64,000 nucleotides of DNA, taken from NCBI GenBank assembly GCA_017446745.1, contig JAFSQF010000067.1, positions 15,010-79,009 of the forward strand. Direction: 5' to 3'. Shown piece after piece: positions 3,500 through 61,415 of the stretch. A program made the translations under genes and the position numbers. Source of the DNA: Bacteroidales bacterium. Lineage in GTDB: Bacteria; Bacteroidota; Bacteroidia; Bacteroidales; P3. The notes under the pieces are model-generated. The model was not told the DNA's origin. It saw only the letters and a list, made by a program, of their open reading frames with translations, and made no database searches. Position 1 is the first letter of the stretch, and each line of letters begins with the position of its first letter.

Positions 3500-3889
3500 A
3501 TGCCTCCAGAAATAATTGCCGGAAACAAACATCGTTACCATATTGAATCGCTTGTAGGTACCAGCAGCACGGCCTACACCTATCGTGCCTTCGTCAGGCG
3601 TAGGAGTGGCAAGACCATACGTCGCCGCTACTACGCCTTGGTGTCGCCAAATGACGAACAGTCGCTCATTTCTTTCCTTTCCGACTTGAGACTGAGTATG
3701 ATGACCACCCCTTTCCCCGTCAGGATTGAGGAGGAAATCAAGAGCGATGATGGTCATTTTTATGTCATCGCCCGTGGTATGAAAGAAAAAAAGAGACACC
3801 CATTGCAAGCTTATACCAACAAAGGTTATCTGATGCTTTTCCTTTCTGCTGTTATACTTATTTTACTGGTAATTAAGTTTTTTAGTTAA
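3500..3889 (+). CDS. hypothetical protein with C-terminal transmembrane anchor
   Basis: 129-aa ORF in an otherwise empty gap, with a hydrophobic C-terminus (LMLFLSAVILILLVIKFF). No family recognised. Confidence 0.35.
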   Translation: MPPEIIAGNKHRYHIESLVGTSSTAYTYRAFVRRRSGKTIRRRYYALVSPNDEQSLISFLSDLRLSMMTTPFPVRIEEEIKSDDGHFYVIARGMKEKKRHPLQAYTNKGYLMLFLSAVILILLVIKFFS

Positions 3890-3907
3890 TTAGATAACAA
3901 TTCCTTT

Positions 3908-35734: not shown

Positions 35735-35784
35735 GATATTATATTTTGGGTTTTAGATTAGTGTCGTTATTTCGATGATTATTT

Positions 35785-35920
35785 TTCGATATCTCGATGT
35801 TTCGTGGTTTCGATGTTTCGTGGTTTCTATGTTTCGTGGTTTCGATGCTTCGATATTTCGATATTTCGATGCTTCGATATTTCGATGTTTCGAAGTTCCT
35901 ATGTTTCGAAGTCTCGAAGG
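35785..35920. repeat. 17 consecutive in-phase 8-bp units (consensus TTCGATGT)
   Basis: Hand-parsed units: TTCGATAT CTCGATGT TTCGTGGT TTCGATGT TTCGTGGT TTCTATGT TTCGTGGT TTCGATGC TTCGATAT TTCGATAT TTCGATGC TTCGATAT TTCGATGT TTCGAAGT TCCTATGT TTCGAAGT CTCGAAGG. No indels. Confidence 0.9.
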
Positions 35921-37101: not shown

Positions 37102-39060
<1,959 letters not shown>

Positions 39061-39174: not shown

Positions 39175-39924
39175 ATGGATAAACGAAATCTTCTTCTCAT
39201 CAGCAACAGCACCATGCGAGGCGAGGCCTATCTGGGCTGGTGCAAGGACATGATTGCCGACTTTTGCAAACGCCACAACGTCAAGCGAGTGCTTTTCATT
39301 CCTTATGCAGGCGTATCGCTGGCCCCAAATGGTTTGACAAAGAGCTATGATGCCTACGAAGCCAAGGTGGCCGCCGTATATAAGGAGTTTGGCGTGAAGC
39401 TGACATCGGTGCATCATAAAGCATTGCCCGTGAATGCTGTATACGACACCGACTGCGTAGCTGTGGGAGGAGGCAACACATTCCATCTGGTGCGCGAGTT
39501 GCAGCGCACCGGCTTGATGCAGGCTATCCGCCAGCGTGCCTTCGACGGCATGCCCTACATGGGCTGGAGTGCCGGCAGCAATGTGGCAGGTCCGACGCTC
39601 TGCACCACCAACGATATGCCCATCGTCATGCCGGCATCGTTCGACTGTATGGGGCTGGTGCCTTTCCAGATCAACCCTCACTACACCGACTTCTTCGACC
39701 CCAAGCATGGCGGCGAGACGCGCGACGACCGCCTGAAGGAGTATATCATGGTGAACCCCAAGGCCACCGTGGCTGCCATACGCGAGGCAACGGCCCTGCT
39801 GCTCGAAGAGGGCAAGCTCTCCCTTATCGGGAAACCCAACAAGATGAAAGTCTTCAAAACCAAGATGGAGAACACCATGGAGTACAGTCTTACAGACGAC
39901 CTCAACTTCCTGCTGAAAGCATAA
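39175..39924 (+). CDS. pepE: dipeptidase E (S51 peptidase)
   Basis: LLLISNST...VGGGNTFHL...GWSAGSNV nucleophile-Ser context. Confidence 0.85.
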   Translation: MDKRNLLLISNSTMRGEAYLGWCKDMIADFCKRHNVKRVLFIPYAGVSLAPNGLTKSYDAYEAKVAAVYKEFGVKLTSVHHKALPVNAVYDTDCVAVGGGNTFHLVRELQRTGLMQAIRQRAFDGMPYMGWSAGSNVAGPTLCTTNDMPIVMPASFDCMGLVPFQINPHYTDFFDPKHGGETRDDRLKEYIMVNPKATVAAIREATALLLEEGKLSLIGKPNKMKVFKTKMENTMEYSLTDDLNFLLKA

Positions 39925-41700: not shown

Positions 41701-42540
41701 ATGACGAAATATATTGGGGCGCATGTCAGCGCAAGCGGGGGCGTGGGGAACGCCATATTGAATGCTGAAGCCATAGGGGCCAACGCTTTTGCTTTATTCA
41801 CGCGGAATCAACGCAGCTGGGTCAGCAAGCCATTGGCCCAAGCGGAGATTGAGGGCTTCAAGACACTACTTGTCGAGAGGGGCTTCGAACCCCGTTACGT
41901 GCTTCCTCACGACAGCTATCTTATCAACCTTGGATCGCCCGACGAGGAGACACTTCAGAAAAGCCGTGCGGCATTCCTCGACGAGATGCGCCGCGCCCAA
42001 CAGCTGGGTCTGACAATGCTCAACTTCCACCCAGGCAGTCATTTGAACAAGATTGGCGAAGAAGAATGCCTGGACCAGATAGCAAGAGAGATAAATCTGG
42101 CGCTGAGCATGACCGAGGGAGTCACGGCCGTGATAGAGAACACCGCAGGGCAGGGCACCAACCTGGGATGGAAATTTGAACATATAGCCCGCATTATCCA
42201 GGGTGTTGACGACAAGAGCCGCGTGGGGGTGTGCATCGACACCTGCCATACCATAGCTGCCGGCTACGACATTTCCACCGAGATGGGATACCAGTTCACT
42301 ATGGACGAGTTCGAGCGTGTGGTGGGCTTCAAATATCTGCGAGCCATGCACCTCAACGACAGCAAGAAAGGTGCCGGCAGCCATGTGGACCGCCACGAAG
42401 TGCTGGGCGAAGGCACCGTAGGCAAGGACTTCTTTGTCCGCATGATGCACGACGAGCGTTTCGACAATATTCCCATTATCTTGGAGACCCCCGACCCAAG
42501 CCGATGGGCCGACGAGATAAAATGGCTGCGAAGCCTTTGA
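41701..42540 (+). CDS. nfo: endonuclease IV (deoxyribonuclease IV)
   Basis: 279 aa. [30 protein letters not shown] and HLNDSK metal-ligand motifs. Confidence 0.93.
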
Positions 42541-43703: not shown

Positions 43704-43735
43704 GGGTTGCAACAGTGTTGCAACATACGGAACGG
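43704..43735 (+). repeat. GTTGCAAC-type REP hairpin, upstream copy
   Basis: GGGTTGCAAC-AGT-GTTGCAAC-ATACGGAACGG. Confidence 0.85.
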
Positions 43736-43909
43736 AGGAAACAGCAAAAAAACAGAGCAAAAAAAACAGAGCAAAAAAAGCAAAAAAAAACAAAAACAGC
43801 AAAAAAACAGAGCAAACAGCAAAAAAAAGCTTAAAAAAAATCAAAAAGCTTAAAAAAAAATCAAAAAGCTTAAAAAAAATCAAAAAAAACTTAAAAAAAC
43901 AGCAGAAAG
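43736..43909 (+). repeat. A-rich low-complexity tract with internal 19-20-bp units
   Basis: Almost no T or G-runs on the + strand. AAAAAAACAGAGC occurs 3 times, and GCTTAAAAAAAATCAAAAA twice plus a degenerate third. Confidence 0.85.
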
Positions 43910-44959
43910 ATGGATTTGGAAACCTTCAAACGGCAAGAGGCCTTTGCCGGAGAGCTAAAGCCTTCAATGAAGCGCCGATGCGTGGCCCACGACTACAGCC
44001 AGCGAGGGATGTATATGGTGACGCTTGCCACAGAAGGGCGAAAGAAACTGTTTGGAATACTGACAGGGCGCAGCGAAGGCGTTCCCGGAGCTCCTGATGC
44101 ACCAGGGATAGCATTGACGGAACTGGGGAAAGAGGTGGAACGCTGTTGGAATGCAATACCTCATTACTATCCGGAGGTTAAGGTGATAGCACTTCAGATA
44201 ATGCCCGACCACATTCATGGCATAATTTTCGTAACACGCCGGATGGAGGGGAAAGACCTCGGGGATGTGATAAAAGGGTTTAAGGTGGGTTGCAACAAAG
44301 CCATGCGCAGGCTGGAGGGCGATGAATATGAGGTTGCATCAATGATGCAACATACGGAACGGCAAAAACATACGGGGCATGAGAGAGGGCTTGTTTTTGA
44401 GAGGGGCTACAACGATAGGCTCCTGCTTAGAGAGGGACAGCTGCAGCGATGGAAAGATTATCTGGCGGACAATCCACGCCGATTGTTGGCTAAACAAGAG
44501 CATCCGGATCTTTTCCGTGTGATTTTTGGCATTCACGTTGCCGAACAAAGTTTTGCGGCGATAGGGAACCGTTTTTTGCTCGACAGGCCCTATAAGCTGC
44601 AGGTGCAATGTTCGCGCAGCTTGACAGTTGCGGAAGTGGAACAAGAGAAGGAACGTTACCTGGCAGAGGCTCGGCAGGGGGCCGTGCTGGTGTCTCCGGC
44701 CATAAGTGAGGGGGAGAAAGCGGTGATGCGTGCGGCCCTCGAAGCCAGGATGCCATTGATATTCCTCTCGCCCAACAGCTTCACGCCATTCACAAAACCC
44801 GGAGGGGAGTACATAGAAGCCTGCTCACGAGGAGATTTTCTGATTCTTGCGCCATGGCCGGAGAGGAGGAACACGAAGGCCATAACGAGAGAAGAATGCC
44901 TGATGCTGAATAGGATGGCGAAGGAGATATGTGGTTGCAACGGTGTTGCAACATACTGA
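43910..44959 (+). CDS. REP-associated tyrosine transposase (RAYT)-like HUH/Y1 protein with about 150-aa C-terminal extension
   Basis: HDYSQRGMYMVTLAT..KLFG, HUH motif MPDHIHGIIF and Tyr motif WKDYLADNPRR, in canonical order. Flanked by cognate-looking hairpins. Confidence 0.75.
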   Translation: MDLETFKRQEAFAGELKPSMKRRCVAHDYSQRGMYMVTLATEGRKKLFGILTGRSEGVPGAPDAPGIALTELGKEVERCWNAIPHYYPEVKVIALQIMPDHIHGIIFVTRRMEGKDLGDVIKGFKVGCNKAMRRLEGDEYEVASMMQHTERQKHTGHERGLVFERGYNDRLLLREGQLQRWKDYLADNPRRLLAKQEHPDLFRVIFGIHVAEQSFAAIGNRFLLDRPYKLQVQCSRSLTVAEVEQEKERYLAEARQGAVLVSPAISEGEKAVMRAALEARMPLIFLSPNSFTPFTKPGGEYIEACSRGDFLILAPWPERRNTKAITREECLMLNRMAKEICGCNGVATY

Positions 44960-45032
44960 ACGGGGAGGGTTGCAACGGTGTTGCAACATACTGAACGAGG
45001 AGGGTTGCAACGGTGTTGCAACATACTGAACG
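44933..45032 (+). repeat. three head-to-tail GTTGCAAC-type REP hairpins, 35-bp period
   Basis: GGTTGCAAC-GGT-GTTGCAAC-ATACTGAACG at 44933, 44967 and 45002. The first copy contains the last 8 codons and the TGA of the RAYT-like ORF. Confidence 0.9.
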
Positions 45033-45325
45033 AAAAAGAGGGGCGGCGAAACAATAAAAAAAACAGAAGGACGTTAAATAGAAAAAAAACTAAAAAAGAG
45101 AAATAACGCAGGGAGGGGGGGGCACAGGAAAAAGAGAGAAAACGCAGGAAAAAGAAAAAAATGCTGGAAGAGAAAATAGACGCAGGAAAGAAAAAAAAAC
45201 ACTGAAAAAGAGAAAAAAAAACACAGAGAAGAGGGAAAAACGCTGAGAGAAAAAACACAGAAAAACAAACAGAAAAAAAACAGAGAAAACAAACAGTGAA
45301 AACAAAACAGAAAAAAGATAAAGAA
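45033..45325 (+). repeat. purine-rich (A/G) low-complexity tract
   Basis: 293 bp of AAAAAGAGA / AACGCAGGAAA / AAACACAGA-type words, with almost no T on the + strand. Ends at the LolA-like start codon. Confidence 0.85.
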
Positions 45326-57065: not shown

Positions 57066-59480
57066 ATGATAGACCAAGCAAACAACACCAATAGTGGAGC
57101 CCCGACGGTGCGGAAAAACACCAACCGTTTCATCATACACAACATCATAGAGCTGTTCATGTCGGCATGGTATTGGATAATAGTGTCGTTGGTGGTGTGC
57201 CTGCTGGCGGCATGGCTGTATTTGAAGATGAGTCCCGACGTGTATTCAGTGGCGGCGACCATACAGATCAACTCGCCCAATCAGCAGGTGAACCAAGACG
57301 TGATGAAAGCCTTCCGCACGCCGAGCAGTGCGGAGAAGGAGATCCACTTCTTCATGTCGCGTCAGGTGATAGACGACGTGGTGCGCGACCTGAACCTCAC
57401 GGTGACGTACATCCAGAGCCACCTATTCCGCGACGAGGACCTATACGACAAGTCGCCGATCGAGGCCTTTTTTGTCGACAACAACTATCCGGCCTGCAAT
57501 TTCATAGCCGAATGTCATACAGGGGGCTACACGCTGACCACCATCGAGACCGAGCGAGGTGTCAGCCCATTGAGCTGGAAGGCCAACTACGGCGACACCT
57601 TGGTGACTCCCAAAGGCGTGATAGTCATCAATAAGCGTCCGGGATACAGCAATCTTGACAAAGAGGAGGTGAAGATACAGTTCCGTCCGTTGAGCGAAGC
57701 CACGTCGATGTACATGGGGAAGATGAGTGCCTATATAGTGGACGAGGATGCCGGCAACATACGTCTGACAATGAACGAGGAGAACCTGAAGCGCGGCATC
57801 GACATCATCAACCTGTGGATAGAGTCGTACAACCGCCATACGGTGGACTACAAGAACCGTGTGGCGCAGAACACAGCCCAGTTTATAGAGGAGCGCCTTC
57901 AGGTTATCAGCCTTGAGCTCTCCGATGTTGAGGACGATTTGGAGAACTATATGCGACAGCACAATATCAGCGACATGAACACCGAGACGGGGAGCAACAT
58001 CACCAGCCGCAACCAGTACGCCCAGTCGCTGGTCGACGAGGAGGTAGCGGTGCGCATAGCCCGCGACCTTCAGAACCGCATCCTCGACGCGCGCCCCTTC
58101 ACCATCCTGCCCAATATATCGATCAACAACGGCAGCGTCAACCAGCTTATCAACGAATATAACCAATCGGTGCGCGAGCGTCAGGAGCTCATAGCCAACT
58201 CGAGTACCGGCAGCCCGCTGGTGGCGGAGAAGGAGTCGCAGATGGACGTGATGCGCACCACCATATTGCGCACGATAGACAACTACATCGAATCGTTGCA
58301 GATACGCATCCGCGAATACCGAAACCAGGAGATTCGCACCACCACGGCCATCAACATGGTACCCACACAGCGTCGCGAGATGCAGTCGTTCACGCGTCAG
58401 CAGTCAATCAAAGAGCAGCTGTACCTTTATCTGCTCAACAAGCGTGAAGAGAACGCGCTGAAGATGACCATCACCGAGGCCGACACCCGCGTGGTGGACT
58501 ATGCAGCCGGCGGCAAGATAGCGCCGGTTCCGTCGCGCACCTATTCCATAGCCTTCATCATAGGGTTGCTGATACCCATAGGCGTGGTGATGCTCATCAA
58601 ATGGCTCGACGTGCGCATCCGCAGCAAGAAAGATGTGGAGGCCTACTGCTCCATACCGGTGGCCGGCATCATCCCCATGGTTGAAGAGGGAGGCAGCCGC
58701 GTCATCACCAAGAGCGGCAAAGACCGTTTCAACGAGACTTTCCGCATCTTGCGCAACAACATACAGTTCATGTGCGGCCAGGTGGAGGGTGGCAAGGTGC
58801 TGATGATGACCTCCACGATGTCGGGCGATGGCAAGAGCCTGCTGGCCTACAACATAGCCCTGTCGTTCGCCTATGCCGGCGAGAAAGTGCTGCTGATAAA
58901 CAGCGACGTGCGTAAGCGCGAGACGTGGCATGGCACCAAGGAGAAATACCGTCACGGCTTGTCGACCTATCTTGCCAAACGCGACAACGACATCAACGAA
59001 CTCATTATGGACGACGAGATTTGCCCCGACCTGAAGGTGATACATAATGGTCCCATACCGCCTAACCCTGCCGAGATATTGATGAGCCACCGTTTCGACG
59101 AACTCGTGGCATGGGCACGGACACAGTACGACTACATAGTCATCGACAGCGTTCCTATCGACATCGTGGCCGATGCCACCATAGTGAACCGCCTGGTCGA
59201 CGCCACCTTCTTCGTCATTAAGGAGAAGACCTCCGACCGCCGCATACTGATGGAGCTGGAGGAATTCTACAAGACAGGTAAGCTCAAGAACATGAGCATT
59301 ATCCTCAACAGCTATAAGATACGCAAGCACAGCTATGGCTATGGCGGTTATGGCTACGGCTACGGTTACGGCTACGGCTATGGTTATGGCTACGGTTATG
59401 GGTATGGCTATGGTTACGGCGACGGCTATGGCGACAGCAAGACCGACGAGAGCGAGGTGCTGAAACCAGCCGACAAATGA
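57066..59480 (+). CDS. Wzc/GumC-type polysaccharide co-polymerase and BY-kinase with (GY)n tail
   Basis: Wzz-like N-terminus with TM helices. Walker A MSGDGKS, A' LLINSDVRKR and B YDYIVIDSVP. C-terminal tract with 15 Tyr. Confidence 0.9.
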   Translation: MIDQANNTNSGAPTVRKNTNRFIIHNIIELFMSAWYWIIVSLVVCLLAAWLYLKMSPDVYSVAATIQINSPNQQVNQDVMKAFRTPSSAEKEIHFFMSRQVIDDVVRDLNLTVTYIQSHLFRDEDLYDKSPIEAFFVDNNYPACNFIAECHTGGYTLTTIETERGVSPLSWKANYGDTLVTPKGVIVINKRPGYSNLDKEEVKIQFRPLSEATSMYMGKMSAYIVDEDAGNIRLTMNEENLKRGIDIINLWIESYNRHTVDYKNRVAQNTAQFIEERLQVISLELSDVEDDLENYMRQHNISDMNTETGSNITSRNQYAQSLVDEEVAVRIARDLQNRILDARPFTILPNISINNGSVNQLINEYNQSVRERQELIANSSTGSPLVAEKESQMDVMRTTILRTIDNYIESLQIRIREYRNQEIRTTTAINMVPTQRREMQSFTRQQSIKEQLYLYLLNKREENALKMTITEADTRVVDYAAGGKIAPVPSRTYSIAFIIGLLIPIGVVMLIKWLDVRIRSKKDVEAYCSIPVAGIIPMVEEGGSRVITKSGKDRFNETFRILRNNIQFMCGQVEGGKVLMMTSTMSGDGKSLLAYNIALSFAYAGEKVLLINSDVRKRETWHGTKEKYRHGLSTYLAKRDNDINELIMDDEICPDLKVIHNGPIPPNPAEILMSHRFDELVAWARTQYDYIVIDSVPIDIVADATIVNRLVDATFFVIKEKTSDRRILMELEEFYKTGKLKNMSIILNSYKIRKHSYGYGGYGYGYGYGYGYGYGYGYGYGYGYGDGYGDSKTDESEVLKPADK

Positions 59481-61198: not shown

Positions 61199-61415
61199 AT
61201 GTGCCGCCCCTACGGGGCTCTTGATTGAATAAAAAAAACGATAATGGTTCCGTGGGTTTACACCCACGGCTAATATATGCCGCCCCTACGGGGCTCTGAT
61301 TGAATAAAAAAAAGACGATAATGGTTCCGTGGGTTTACACCCACGGCTAATATGTTTTGTTCTCCGCTTCGCTATCGAAAGCTCCACAGGAGCTTTCTTC
61401 ACACCTACGGGGCTA
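61199..61415 (+). repeat. composite repeat, copy E: two tandem 76-77-bp H0-linker-H1 units plus module 2
   Basis: H1 CCGTGGGT-TTAC-ACCCACGG at 61250-61269 and 61327-61346. The linkers TGATTGAATAAAAAAAA(G)ACGATAATGGTT are near-identical. Confidence 0.9.

Follow-up and report, generated by a model that had tools for sequence, protein, structure and literature searches.

Transposases that are passed on vertically along with their non-autonomous repeats are best exemplified by the systems of repetitive extragenic palindromes (REPs) and REP-associated tyrosine transposases (RAYTs), which are known mostly from Proteobacteria. The present work deals with a gene of a gut or rumen Bacteroidales metagenome-assembled genome (MAG) for which a similar partnership is probable. 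The gene is an open reading frame (ORF) at positions 43910-44959 of a stretch of 64,000 nucleotides (assembly GCA_017446745.1, contig JAFSQF010000067.1, positions 15,010 to 79,009 of the forward strand), which was analyzed as a whole and is denoted here as the window; its product, GenBank MBQ9587605.1, is labelled 'hypothetical protein'. The ORF is bracketed by, and also contains, copies of a short near-palindromic element of ~35-41 nt, with the consensus 5'-(GTYC-N-GTRT)-GTTGCAAC-NNN-GTTGCAAC-ATAC-N-GRAC-3'. The reading that we favor, to which we assign a probability of about 0.68, is that of a REP/RAYT-type system in which a vertically inherited, single-copy Y1 HUH nuclease carrying a DprA-like domain is paired with these cognate elements.

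A precedent was provided by Quentin and coworkers, who described the TnpA_Y1 subclasses 1.2, 2.4 and 2.6 of Bacteroidetes (Quentin et al. 2018, PMC6006769). In subclass 2.4, REPs are found in frame inside tnpA_REP, between the HUH and Tyr motifs, as well as in unrelated genes (PMC6006769). With both the Bacteroidetes RAYT classes and the in-frame insertion of REPs published, the kind of system is already known, and the statement that no described Bacteroidota system could be matched with this locus, made in an earlier inspection of the letters of the window without database searches (from now on, the sequence-only reading), was too strong (PMC6006769).

The enzyme and the hairpins of the window

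The RAYT/IS200 signatures that the sequence-only reading had recognized in the ORF are present, and in the order described: HDYSQRGMYMVTLAT, MPDHIHGIIF (with H101 at 44210-44212 and H103 at 44216-44218) and WKDYLADNPRR, which contains Y184. In 54 sequences reaching down to 34% identity, H101, H103, Y184 and N188 are invariant; a closer set of 30 sequences includes one member with Q at position 101. The motifs of the family can be written as DH[IL]H, LF(E/A)xGYND (LFERGYND in the window protein) and YLxDNP, and the class-2 'Y...NP' signature is present. An AlphaFold2 model built from the 54-sequence alignment (A2) reached a predicted local distance difference test (pLDDT) value of 90.9 and a predicted TM-score of 0.84, with disorder (pLDDT <50) confined to residues 144-158 and Y184 placed in a helix spanning residues 177-197. 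When the Protein Data Bank (PDB) was searched with this predicted model as the Foldseek query, Y1 proteins were matched at E 2e-5 to 1e-3, with a probability of 1.00 and target-normalised TM-scores of 0.6-0.69. The N-terminal domain matched ISDra2 (2xm3, E 2e-5), IS608, IS200 TnpA and 2vjv, as well as TnpA_REP (4er8_A, E 7e-4, target-normalised TM-score 0.62). The C-terminal domain (~residues 200-345) matched DprA from H. pylori (4ljk, E 6e-5, root-mean-square deviation 4.5 Å over 150 columns) and S. pneumoniae (3uqz), and also ShosA (8zva, E 1.3e-6).

A search of the PDB sequences with the single protein returned nothing relevant; the family profile retrieved ISDra2 TnpA (E 3.5e-4, the alignment falling on the MPDHxH HUH motif) and DprA (E 0.07, profile positions 202-301). 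Among the NCBIfam models, NF047646 REP_Tyr_transpos was matched over model positions 47-133 at E 8.9e-10 and 38.6 bits. On the basis of the model and of these matches, the protein is a predicted Y1 HUH enzyme of the IS200/RAYT fold, for which cleavage is also predicted. Its C-terminal domain carries no Pfam domain, with no match to DNA_processg_A at E <=1, and PHROGs gave only a weak transposase match (E 0.34). There was no evidence of a role in transformation or defense, and PADLOC yielded no match for the protein.

As for the hairpins, the disposition reported from the letters alone, with one copy upstream of the ORF and three downstream in an exact 35-nt array, stands: GTTGCAACNNNGTTGCAAC, with up to 2 mismatches, is matched 5 times in the 64-kb window, always at the HUH locus, against a mean of 0.01 in shuffled windows (none of 100 shuffles reached 5). 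All nine GTTGCAAC octamers of the window fall inside 43706-45022. As single-stranded DNA (ssDNA), each unit forms a hairpin of 8 bp closed by a loop of 3 nt, with a folding energy of -7.3 to -7.5 kcal/mol and z between -2.4 and -5.1. The upstream unit, which begins 15 nt past the phzF stop codon, is located 171 nt ahead of the ATG, and the downstream array was delimited by Tandem Repeats Finder at 44933-45033 (period 35, 2.9 copies, 98% matches, 0 indels). The first unit of this array overlaps the end of the ORF, encoding its last 8 codons (GCNGVATY) and the TGA stop, so that the gene does end inside a repeat, as had been proposed. Three features had been missed: the C-terminal DprA-like domain, the direct orientation of the flanking hairpins and a fifth hairpin copy, which lies inside the ORF. 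This internal copy codes for VASMMQHTER, part of a loop that joins helix C to strand 4 and is disordered according to the model, and its stem retains 8 bp by virtue of a compensatory A>T / T>A change. A lone half-site, GGTTGCAAC, is found 35 nt upstream of the internal hairpin, at 44289-44296, where it encodes a conserved F-K-x-G-C-N-K motif; it may be a coincidence or a remnant. The segment 42500-46500 gave no match to any Rfam family at E <=1.

A covarying hairpin and its copies in relatives

In a set of 83 orthologous loci (80 metagenome loci, the window and two other loci), 76 have a perfect hairpin at nt 400-450 of the ORF, in which a stem of 6 bp or more (9-12 bp as a rule) encloses a 3-nt loop, an arrangement that chance would produce in ~5% of the loci. 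The outer stem, (GTR)TGTTG...CAACA(YAC), is constant across loci, and the apical four pairs differ by class (CAAC/GTTG, CGAC/GTCG, CTGT/ACAG, TGGC/GCCA, CGTT/AACG, TGAC/GTCA). At least eight stem classes could be told apart, GTTGCAAC, GTTGCGAC/GTCGCAAC, GTTGCTGT/ACAGCAAC and GTTGTGGC/GCCACAAC being among them. An alignment of 63 sequences (A4) showed 100% pairing at the four apical positions, where 9, 29, 29 and 20 double changes were counted; this percentage is partly built in, given that the hairpins were chosen by pairing, but their recurrence at one position and the diversity of stem classes are not. The covariation score of the alignment was 0.295, compared with 0.147 ± 0.010 for shuffles (none of 500 reached it), and fell to 0.09 or less when the partners were slid. 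The pairing of an outer 'foot' helix (GTYC/GRAC), which is ~50-75% paired with register shifts between classes, is suggestive. The encoded peptide shifts with the stem (VATLLQHT, YVATLSQH, SVAVLQQQT, YVVAMPQQT, FVAVAQQHA), and the fact that it does so within a disordered loop argues that selection acts on the nucleic acid and not on the protein.

Flanking copies were analyzed in 68 loci whose internal hairpin has at least 7 bp. In 24 of the 68, covering seven classes, flanking copies share exactly the stem class of the internal copy. Those upstream are separated from the ATG by 42-79 nt (in one case 293 nt), those at the other end overlap the stop codon, at +1015 to +1098, and a locus may have one kind or both; in every case they are co-oriented with the gene. 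One ortholog (L174) mirrors the window in having three tandem 32-nt units at the stop codon, and two others (L175, L191) combine tandem-repeat tails rich in purines with a partly duplicated right arm. The window itself departs from this pattern of relatives, because its four flanking units belong to the GTTGCAAC class, whereas compensated drift has turned the stem of the internal copy into GTTGCATC/GATGCAAC. The coincidence of stem classes within a locus, together with their divergence between loci, implies a process that copies or homogenizes the units at the DNA level and is tied to the gene. The sequences thus indicate a concerted evolution of flanking and internal copies and, since both share compensatory stem variants within a locus, the hairpins can be considered cognate to the gene. 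The conserved feature of the family, however, is the copy inside the ORF, not the flanking ones.

Vertical inheritance is supported by the neighborhood of the gene. In the window, gyrB (37135-39054), a gene for an S51 peptidase (39175-39921), nfo (41701-42540) and a phzF-like gene precede the HUH gene, which is present once in the 64 kb and is followed by a lolA-like gene; the absence of an adjoining tnpB, already noted from the letters, was confirmed. Parts of the order gyrB-S51-(nfo)-(phzF)-gene recur in six relatives of 53-72% identity (L001, L004, L005, L119, L121, L122). When the products were compared with those of relatives, identity was 86-95% for S51 and 81-89% for nfo, and only 53-70% for the HUH gene. 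That the neighbors are far better conserved than the gene itself indicates a vertically inherited, fast-evolving resident rather than an insertion sequence.

The element also occurs away from the gene. A scan of a genome collection with the exact pattern GTTGCAACNNNGTTGCAACAT matched at least 110 stretches and, among the matches listed, ~45 in rumen or gut Bacteroidales have the full consensus GTGT-GTTGCAAC-NNT-GTTGCAAC-ATAC-NGRAC, most of them far from any homolog of the HUH gene. At its full length of ~41 nt, the unit is almost palindromic, its feet being symmetric (GTYC-N-GTRT ... ATAC-N-GRAC), and the orientation of dispersed copies is ill-defined for this reason (as in L013 and L101 versus L082, all at the same coaBC site). 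One MAG (JAZNSV01) has at least nine copies on eight contigs, and another (JAFVWV01) has copies on at least six contigs, largely in the same genes. These two are the only genomes in which dispersed copies were matched to the genome's own gene, the class being GTTGCAAC by ascertainment. In-frame copies with Pfam domains on both sides were found in alaS, in the linker of coaBC, in ribD, in the linker of purL, and in the genes for an M20 peptidase and a GH2 enzyme; an ABC ATPase and the signal peptide of a lipoprotein each have one copy that was recognized by eye, and further copies lie just past stop codons or in leaders. The signal-peptide copy (L023, ~2090-2170, opposite strand) appears, as judged by eye, to encode part of the hydrophobic core (MTVKRTTITKAVMYVATLLQLMAC...), and the element would thereby contribute functional coding sequence.

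In the case of alaS, the hairpin-coded peptide is found in the alanyl-tRNA synthetase (AlaRS) of 13 of 120 close relatives, several with decayed variants, the remaining relatives having an ordinary 13-residue beta-hairpin of equal length. This restriction to a clade, accompanied by decay, suggests a clade-specific insertion followed by neutral decay, with no selection for the element. These results were obtained with a full-length query; a 133-residue AlaRS fragment had retrieved only short fragments lacking the insert. In the AlaRS sequences inspected (L020, L059, L070, L071; P0415-P0534), the 13 residues that follow FYGESGGQxGDxG are hypervariable (ELRVESGKWRIKN, KLRVKDYELRVNN, VLKAENGEWRVVN), and the version encoded by the hairpin, SVCCNNVATKITN, has exactly the same length as the other variants, so that here the element seems to have taken the place of other residues instead of adding to them; in one AlaRS (L071), the version is longer and includes partial copies in tandem.

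Other matches to GTTGCAAC-N3-GTTGCAAC, in Aquificales, Proteobacteria and other Bacteroidia ('TTTTATTTTAGATG...ATTT'), were rejected as unrelated, as they have neither the ATAC-NGRAC foot nor the gene. One such family, in Rikenellaceae, Lentimicrobium, Ancylomarina and Marinifilum, is characterized by a T-rich flank, GTTGCAACATGGTTGCAAC, ATTT and often ...TAAAGATACTTTT (L015, L016, L017, L022, L027, L029, L043, L046, L047, L055, L060, L062, L067, L072, L093, L113). It has no ATAC-NGRAC foot and no HUH gene, and looks like an operator- or promoter-associated site. In Aquificota (L008, L031, L044, L045, L058, L074, L087, L090), the form is GTTGCAAC-AYT-GTTGCAAC-ATGCAAC(A), with several sites per genome, and it may represent an independent repeat family.

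Repeat tails accompany the hairpins. Both hairpin blocks of the window have A-rich or purine-rich short-period tandem repeats on their 3' side, on the same strand, and purine-rich tandem-repeat tails lie 3' of the hairpins in four relatives (L175, L012, L065, L102). Such 3' tails were also observed in a wider group (L175 at 2240-2440 and 3730-3900, L012, L024, L065, L077, L102, L110), their sequence varying by genome: the window has A-rich tails, Alloprevotella has (CCTCATAA)n, L065 has (TTCTGAA)n, and the units of L175 are of 22 nt (GGGCAACAGCTAAAGGGGCACT). It is also common for the right arm and foot to be partly duplicated (L005, L014, L071, L191 and the M20 copy in L033), which, together with the tails, suggests slippage or re-initiation at the hairpin. 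In many orthologs, the internal hairpin is followed by a Q/T-rich low-complexity peptide of variable length, matching the 'hairpin plus repeat tail' outside the gene.

With regard to its extent, the family is a large one of gut and rumen Bacteroidales, beyond the reach of the Pfam Y1_Tnp model. A word-indexed search yielded 3,347 homologs, all of ~340-390 residues and none with a precomputed Pfam domain, and an exhaustive search, with E <=0.001 as the limit, yielded 7,662 clusters (50% identity), of which 459 had E values under 1e-30. The combination of the two domains can be followed down to ~35% identity. Most protein clusters are found on just 1-3 contigs each. Most homologs lie on very short contigs (1-4 kb), and the HUH locus may be a point at which short-read assemblies break, owing to the hairpin arrays and repeat tails.

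Table 1. Features of the HUH locus, in window coordinates; R1 is a covariance model of the hairpin
Feature	Position	Strand	Basis or remark
ORF, predicted Y1 HUH nuclease fused to a DprA-like domain	43910..44959	+	349 aa
Predicted N-terminal Y1 HUH domain (IS200/IS605 TnpA / RAYT fold), ~residues 1-200	43910..44509	+	
HUH motif D100-H101-I102-H103	44207-44218	+	
Predicted catalytic Tyr184 within YLADNP	44459-44461	+	
Predicted C-terminal DprA-like Rossmann domain, ~residues 201-349	44510..44959	+	Foldseek and profile search against PDB
Upstream hairpin unit GGTTGCAAC-AGT-GTTGCAAC-ATACGGAACGGAGGA	43705..43739	+	R1 55.1 bits; DNA fold -7.5 kcal/mol
Internal in-frame hairpin copy GTTGCATC-AAT-GATGCAAC-ATACGGAACGG	44323..44363	+	R1 27.2 bits, E 9e-7
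Three head-to-tail hairpin units, exact 35-nt period	44933..45037	+	R1 and Tandem Repeats Finder
A-rich low-complexity tandem-repeat tract, periods 9-19 nt, from the upstream hairpin to the start codon	43739..43909	+	
Purine/A-rich low-complexity tandem-repeat tract, periods 10-25 nt, from the hairpin array to the lolA-like gene	45040..45325	+	

Proposed mechanism and competing explanations

The chemistry of IS608, ISDra2 and the TnpA_REP structures is established (PMC3479197, PMC3333891), and from the chemistry of the family we infer the cleavage, the binding and the active strand proposed for the present enzyme. Briefly, the enzyme would bind the hairpin when the DNA becomes single-stranded, for instance at the replication fork, and the DprA-like domain, which plausibly adds ssDNA binding, would help to hold the strand. 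A nick would then be made beside the conserved foot (ATAC / GRAC), with a metal bound to H101 and H103 and a 5'-phosphotyrosine link formed by Y184. Rejoining of strands would now and then place copied or relocated units at new sites, give rise to tandem duplicates and homogenize the units within a genome. The copy inside the ORF, located in a tolerant disordered loop, may persist as a protected master or template copy, or as an autoregulatory site by which the protein senses or controls the gene that encodes it, and may even combine the two roles.

Several observations weigh against the assignment to a REP/RAYT-type system. The score against NF047646 is well below the equivalog cut-off (38.6 vs 80 bits), and that against Pfam PF01797 (Y1_Tnp) is below the gathering threshold (12.8 vs 23 bits, E 0.14). 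The motifs (DH[IL]H; F-E/A instead of W-Q/E; YLxDNP) fit no published subclass (PMC6006769). Beyond the locus, the R1 covariance model, with filters off, found 0 copies in the remaining ~62 kb of the window, and the numbers seen in single MAGs with the exact pattern are low, at least 6-9, vs hundreds for classical REPs. Many copies occupy orthologous sites common to several species, and need not reflect recent mobility; flanking copies are absent from about two thirds of the orthologous loci, and where present they are direct and not inverted. As to the claims of the sequence-only reading, the profile match on which it had counted was thus obtained with NF047646, by whose scores the protein would be a homolog and not an equivalog, but not with Pfam; the further hairpin copies it foresaw were found in the genomes of relatives but not elsewhere in the window; and its proposal of a domesticated REP/RAYT pair holds for the Y1 fold, the single copy, the synteny and the cognate hairpins, but not for the hundreds of extragenic copies, which were not seen.

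A bolder version of the REP/RAYT-type reading would make the family a distinct, unclassified branch of HUH enzymes that carries its recognition hairpin in its own ORF as a master copy, and that acts either as a self-templating replicator or as a host-domesticated system for ssDNA processing. We regard this extension as speculative and rather improbable. If true, it would mean that cassettes of ~27-41 nt are written in frame into the surface loops of essential genes and homogenized genome-wide, and the system would be more than a diverged RAYT with relic repeats.

The main rival of the reading that we favor, even if we consider it unlikely, is that of a domesticated regulator that no longer mobilizes anything: the hairpins in the leader, in the ORF and at the 3' end would be cis-regulatory sites in mRNA or ssDNA, exerting control, for example, by binding to the gene's own transcript, by attenuation or by termination, and the copies elsewhere would be relics. 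The copies at the gene are co-oriented with transcription in every locus examined, so all of them would be on the mRNA, and in one ortholog (L191) a -7 promoter box of the TAnnTTTG-like type immediately precedes the upstream copy, which would place this copy in the 5' untranslated region. Such a role would also agree with the fact that the internal copy alone is near-universal and is kept by compensatory change, with the decay of the copies in alaS, and with the small number of copies elsewhere, many at orthologous sites. However, the invariance of the HUH histidines and the catalytic Tyr to 34% identity points to retained catalysis over mere binding, the identical stem variants of internal and flanking copies and the tandem or partial duplications speak for copying at the DNA level, and the elements must at some time have been mobile to be acquired by several unrelated genes in a clade-specific manner; nor was there a match in Rfam. 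Autoregulation and mobilization could, in any case, coexist, as they are not exclusive.

An ordinary autonomous insertion sequence (IS) of the IS200 type, in which the co-oriented hairpins would be the left and right subterminal ends and the whole gene would move, was also considered, and we judge it very unlikely. The enzyme has the Y1 HUH fold, and many homologs are on short contigs, possibly as a result of breaks at repeats. Moreover, the flanking hairpins are all direct, a feature overlooked in the sequence-only reading, which saw no IS200/IS605-style asymmetric ends, and in this they do resemble the co-oriented ends of IS200/IS605 elements. In contrast, the gene is single-copy in the window and keeps its synteny with gyrB, the S51 peptidase gene and nfo, in a gyrB-S51-(nfo)-(phzF)-gene neighborhood conserved among relatives of 53-72% identity, and for these reasons it is not regarded as an ordinary IS. 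Furthermore, the flanking hairpins are missing from about two thirds of the orthologous loci, the downstream 'end' is a variable tandem array over a stop codon, and most protein clusters are confined to 1-3 contigs each.

Finally, the idea that the repeats are a by-product of coding constraint or local slippage and not an element recognized by an enzyme, to which one might be led by the translation of the internal copy (VASMMQHT), by the conserved GCNK motif that GGTTGCAAC also encodes at 44289 and by the richness of the nearby DNA in short tandem repeats, is effectively refuted by covariation and non-coding copies: base pairing and not the peptide is conserved between stem classes (YVATLSQH, SVAVLQQQ, YVVAMPQQ, FVAVAQQH), disorder is predicted for the stretch that the hairpin encodes, the units are also present in non-coding DNA as well as in unrelated genes, and 5 copies were observed against 0.01 expected by chance.

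Two further roles for the hairpins were proposed and rejected. A replication-origin feature had been suggested by the proximity of gyrB and by a turn in the GC skew near 16-20 kb; the hairpins are not recognizable as DnaA boxes, and they track the gene where the neighborhood differs. A DNA-uptake sequence had been suggested by the DprA-like domain, and the copy number is far too low for it. The cumulative GC skew of the window drops to ~16-20 kb and then climbs steadily to ~60 kb, with gyrB at 37135-39054, and this course could reflect a switch of gene strand or a nearby replication origin. The window also contains other tandem repeats (35784-35917; 59332-59432; 61202-61353; 289-339), which comprise an 8-nt unit TTTCGATG repeated 16.8 times, a 6-nt or 18-nt array of the GCTATG type and a 77-nt unit present twice, the last holding the GC-rich inverted repeat GCCCCTACGGGGC; none of these arrays is related to the hairpin family.

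Comparison with described systems

Among the closest described systems is subclass 2.4 of RAYT/TnpA_REP (group 4 of Bertels), which shares with the present family a low-copy Y1 HUH gene with cognate flanking hairpins, an in-frame REP located in a peripheral loop between the HUH and Tyr motifs, the occurrence in Bacteroidetes and the class-2 'Y-x-x-x-N-P' signature (PMC6006769). Both have symmetric 'double-foot' elements, with feet 5' GT[AG]G ... C[TC]AC 3' in subclass 2.4 (PMC6006769) and 5' GTRT ... ATAC 3', with an outer GTYC/GRAC, in the present case. According to its published description, subclass 2.4 is set apart by NH[IFV]H, WQ, YIxNNP and a median length of 194 residues (PMC6006769), whereas the family described here has DH[IL]H, F-E/A, YLxDNP and ~340-390 residues, owing to the ~150-residue DprA-like domain at the C-terminus. 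In addition, the internal hairpin, occasional in subclass 2.4, is near-universal here (76/83 loci), and the protein is below the Pfam Y1_Tnp threshold.

The IS200/IS605 TnpA proteins (IS608, ISDra2) offer the best structural match (2xm3, E 2e-5) and likewise have co-oriented subterminal hairpins; their ssDNA 'peel and paste' by means of HUH and Tyr would be shared by the present enzyme. In contrast to them, the gene described here is not multi-copy, has a conserved chromosomal context, no tnpB and undefined ends, and differs further in the hairpin that its ORF contains and in the domain fused at the C-terminus. TnpA_REP with REP-BIME in E. coli and the REPIN-RAYT pair of Pseudomonas (4ER8) are similar in fold, in the combination of HUH with a single Tyr, in being single-copy and vertically inherited, and in that the hairpin family appears to co-evolve with the gene. 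Unlike classical REPs or REPINs, the hairpins described here are not GC-rich and lack the 5' GTAG or CGTC tag; their flanking copies are direct, whereas those of REPINs form inverted pairs; and, among the matches listed, there are tens of copies at most, many of them intragenic, to which the extra DprA-like domain of the enzyme has to be added.

The Rickettsia palindromic elements are small palindromic repeats of ~100-150 nt found in frame in coding genes. They resemble the present elements in placing palindromes in loops or linkers of housekeeping proteins and in their vertical inheritance, but the units described here are shorter (~27-41 nt) and are tied to an identifiable cognate HUH gene. 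As for DprA, and the DprA-like domain of ShosA, the likeness lies in the Rossmann-type fold (4ljk, 3uqz, 8zva), and the differences in the lack of a significant sequence-family match and in the fusion to an HUH nuclease.

The members of the family are currently annotated as 'hypothetical', and the Pfam transposase model misses them. They offer a tractable system for studying the recognition of hairpins by HUH enzymes, self-regulation and the way in which palindromes enter essential genes in frame (alaS, coaBC, ribD, purL), as well as an unusually clean comparative signal, in the form of a compensatory hairpin in the enzyme's own ORF and flanks evolving in step with it. The hairpin repeats are a probable cause of breaks in metagenome assemblies, and because of them the housekeeping proteins of abundant gut bacteria contain odd peptides. 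In the literature searched, no description of the hairpin motif or of a Y1-DprA fusion was found. Set against the described systems, what appears to be new is, therefore, the long architecture that joins HUH and DprA-like domains, with divergent motifs that escape Pfam, the near-universal, covarying internal hairpin with its matching flanks, and the large number of members that the family has among gut and rumen Bacteroidales.

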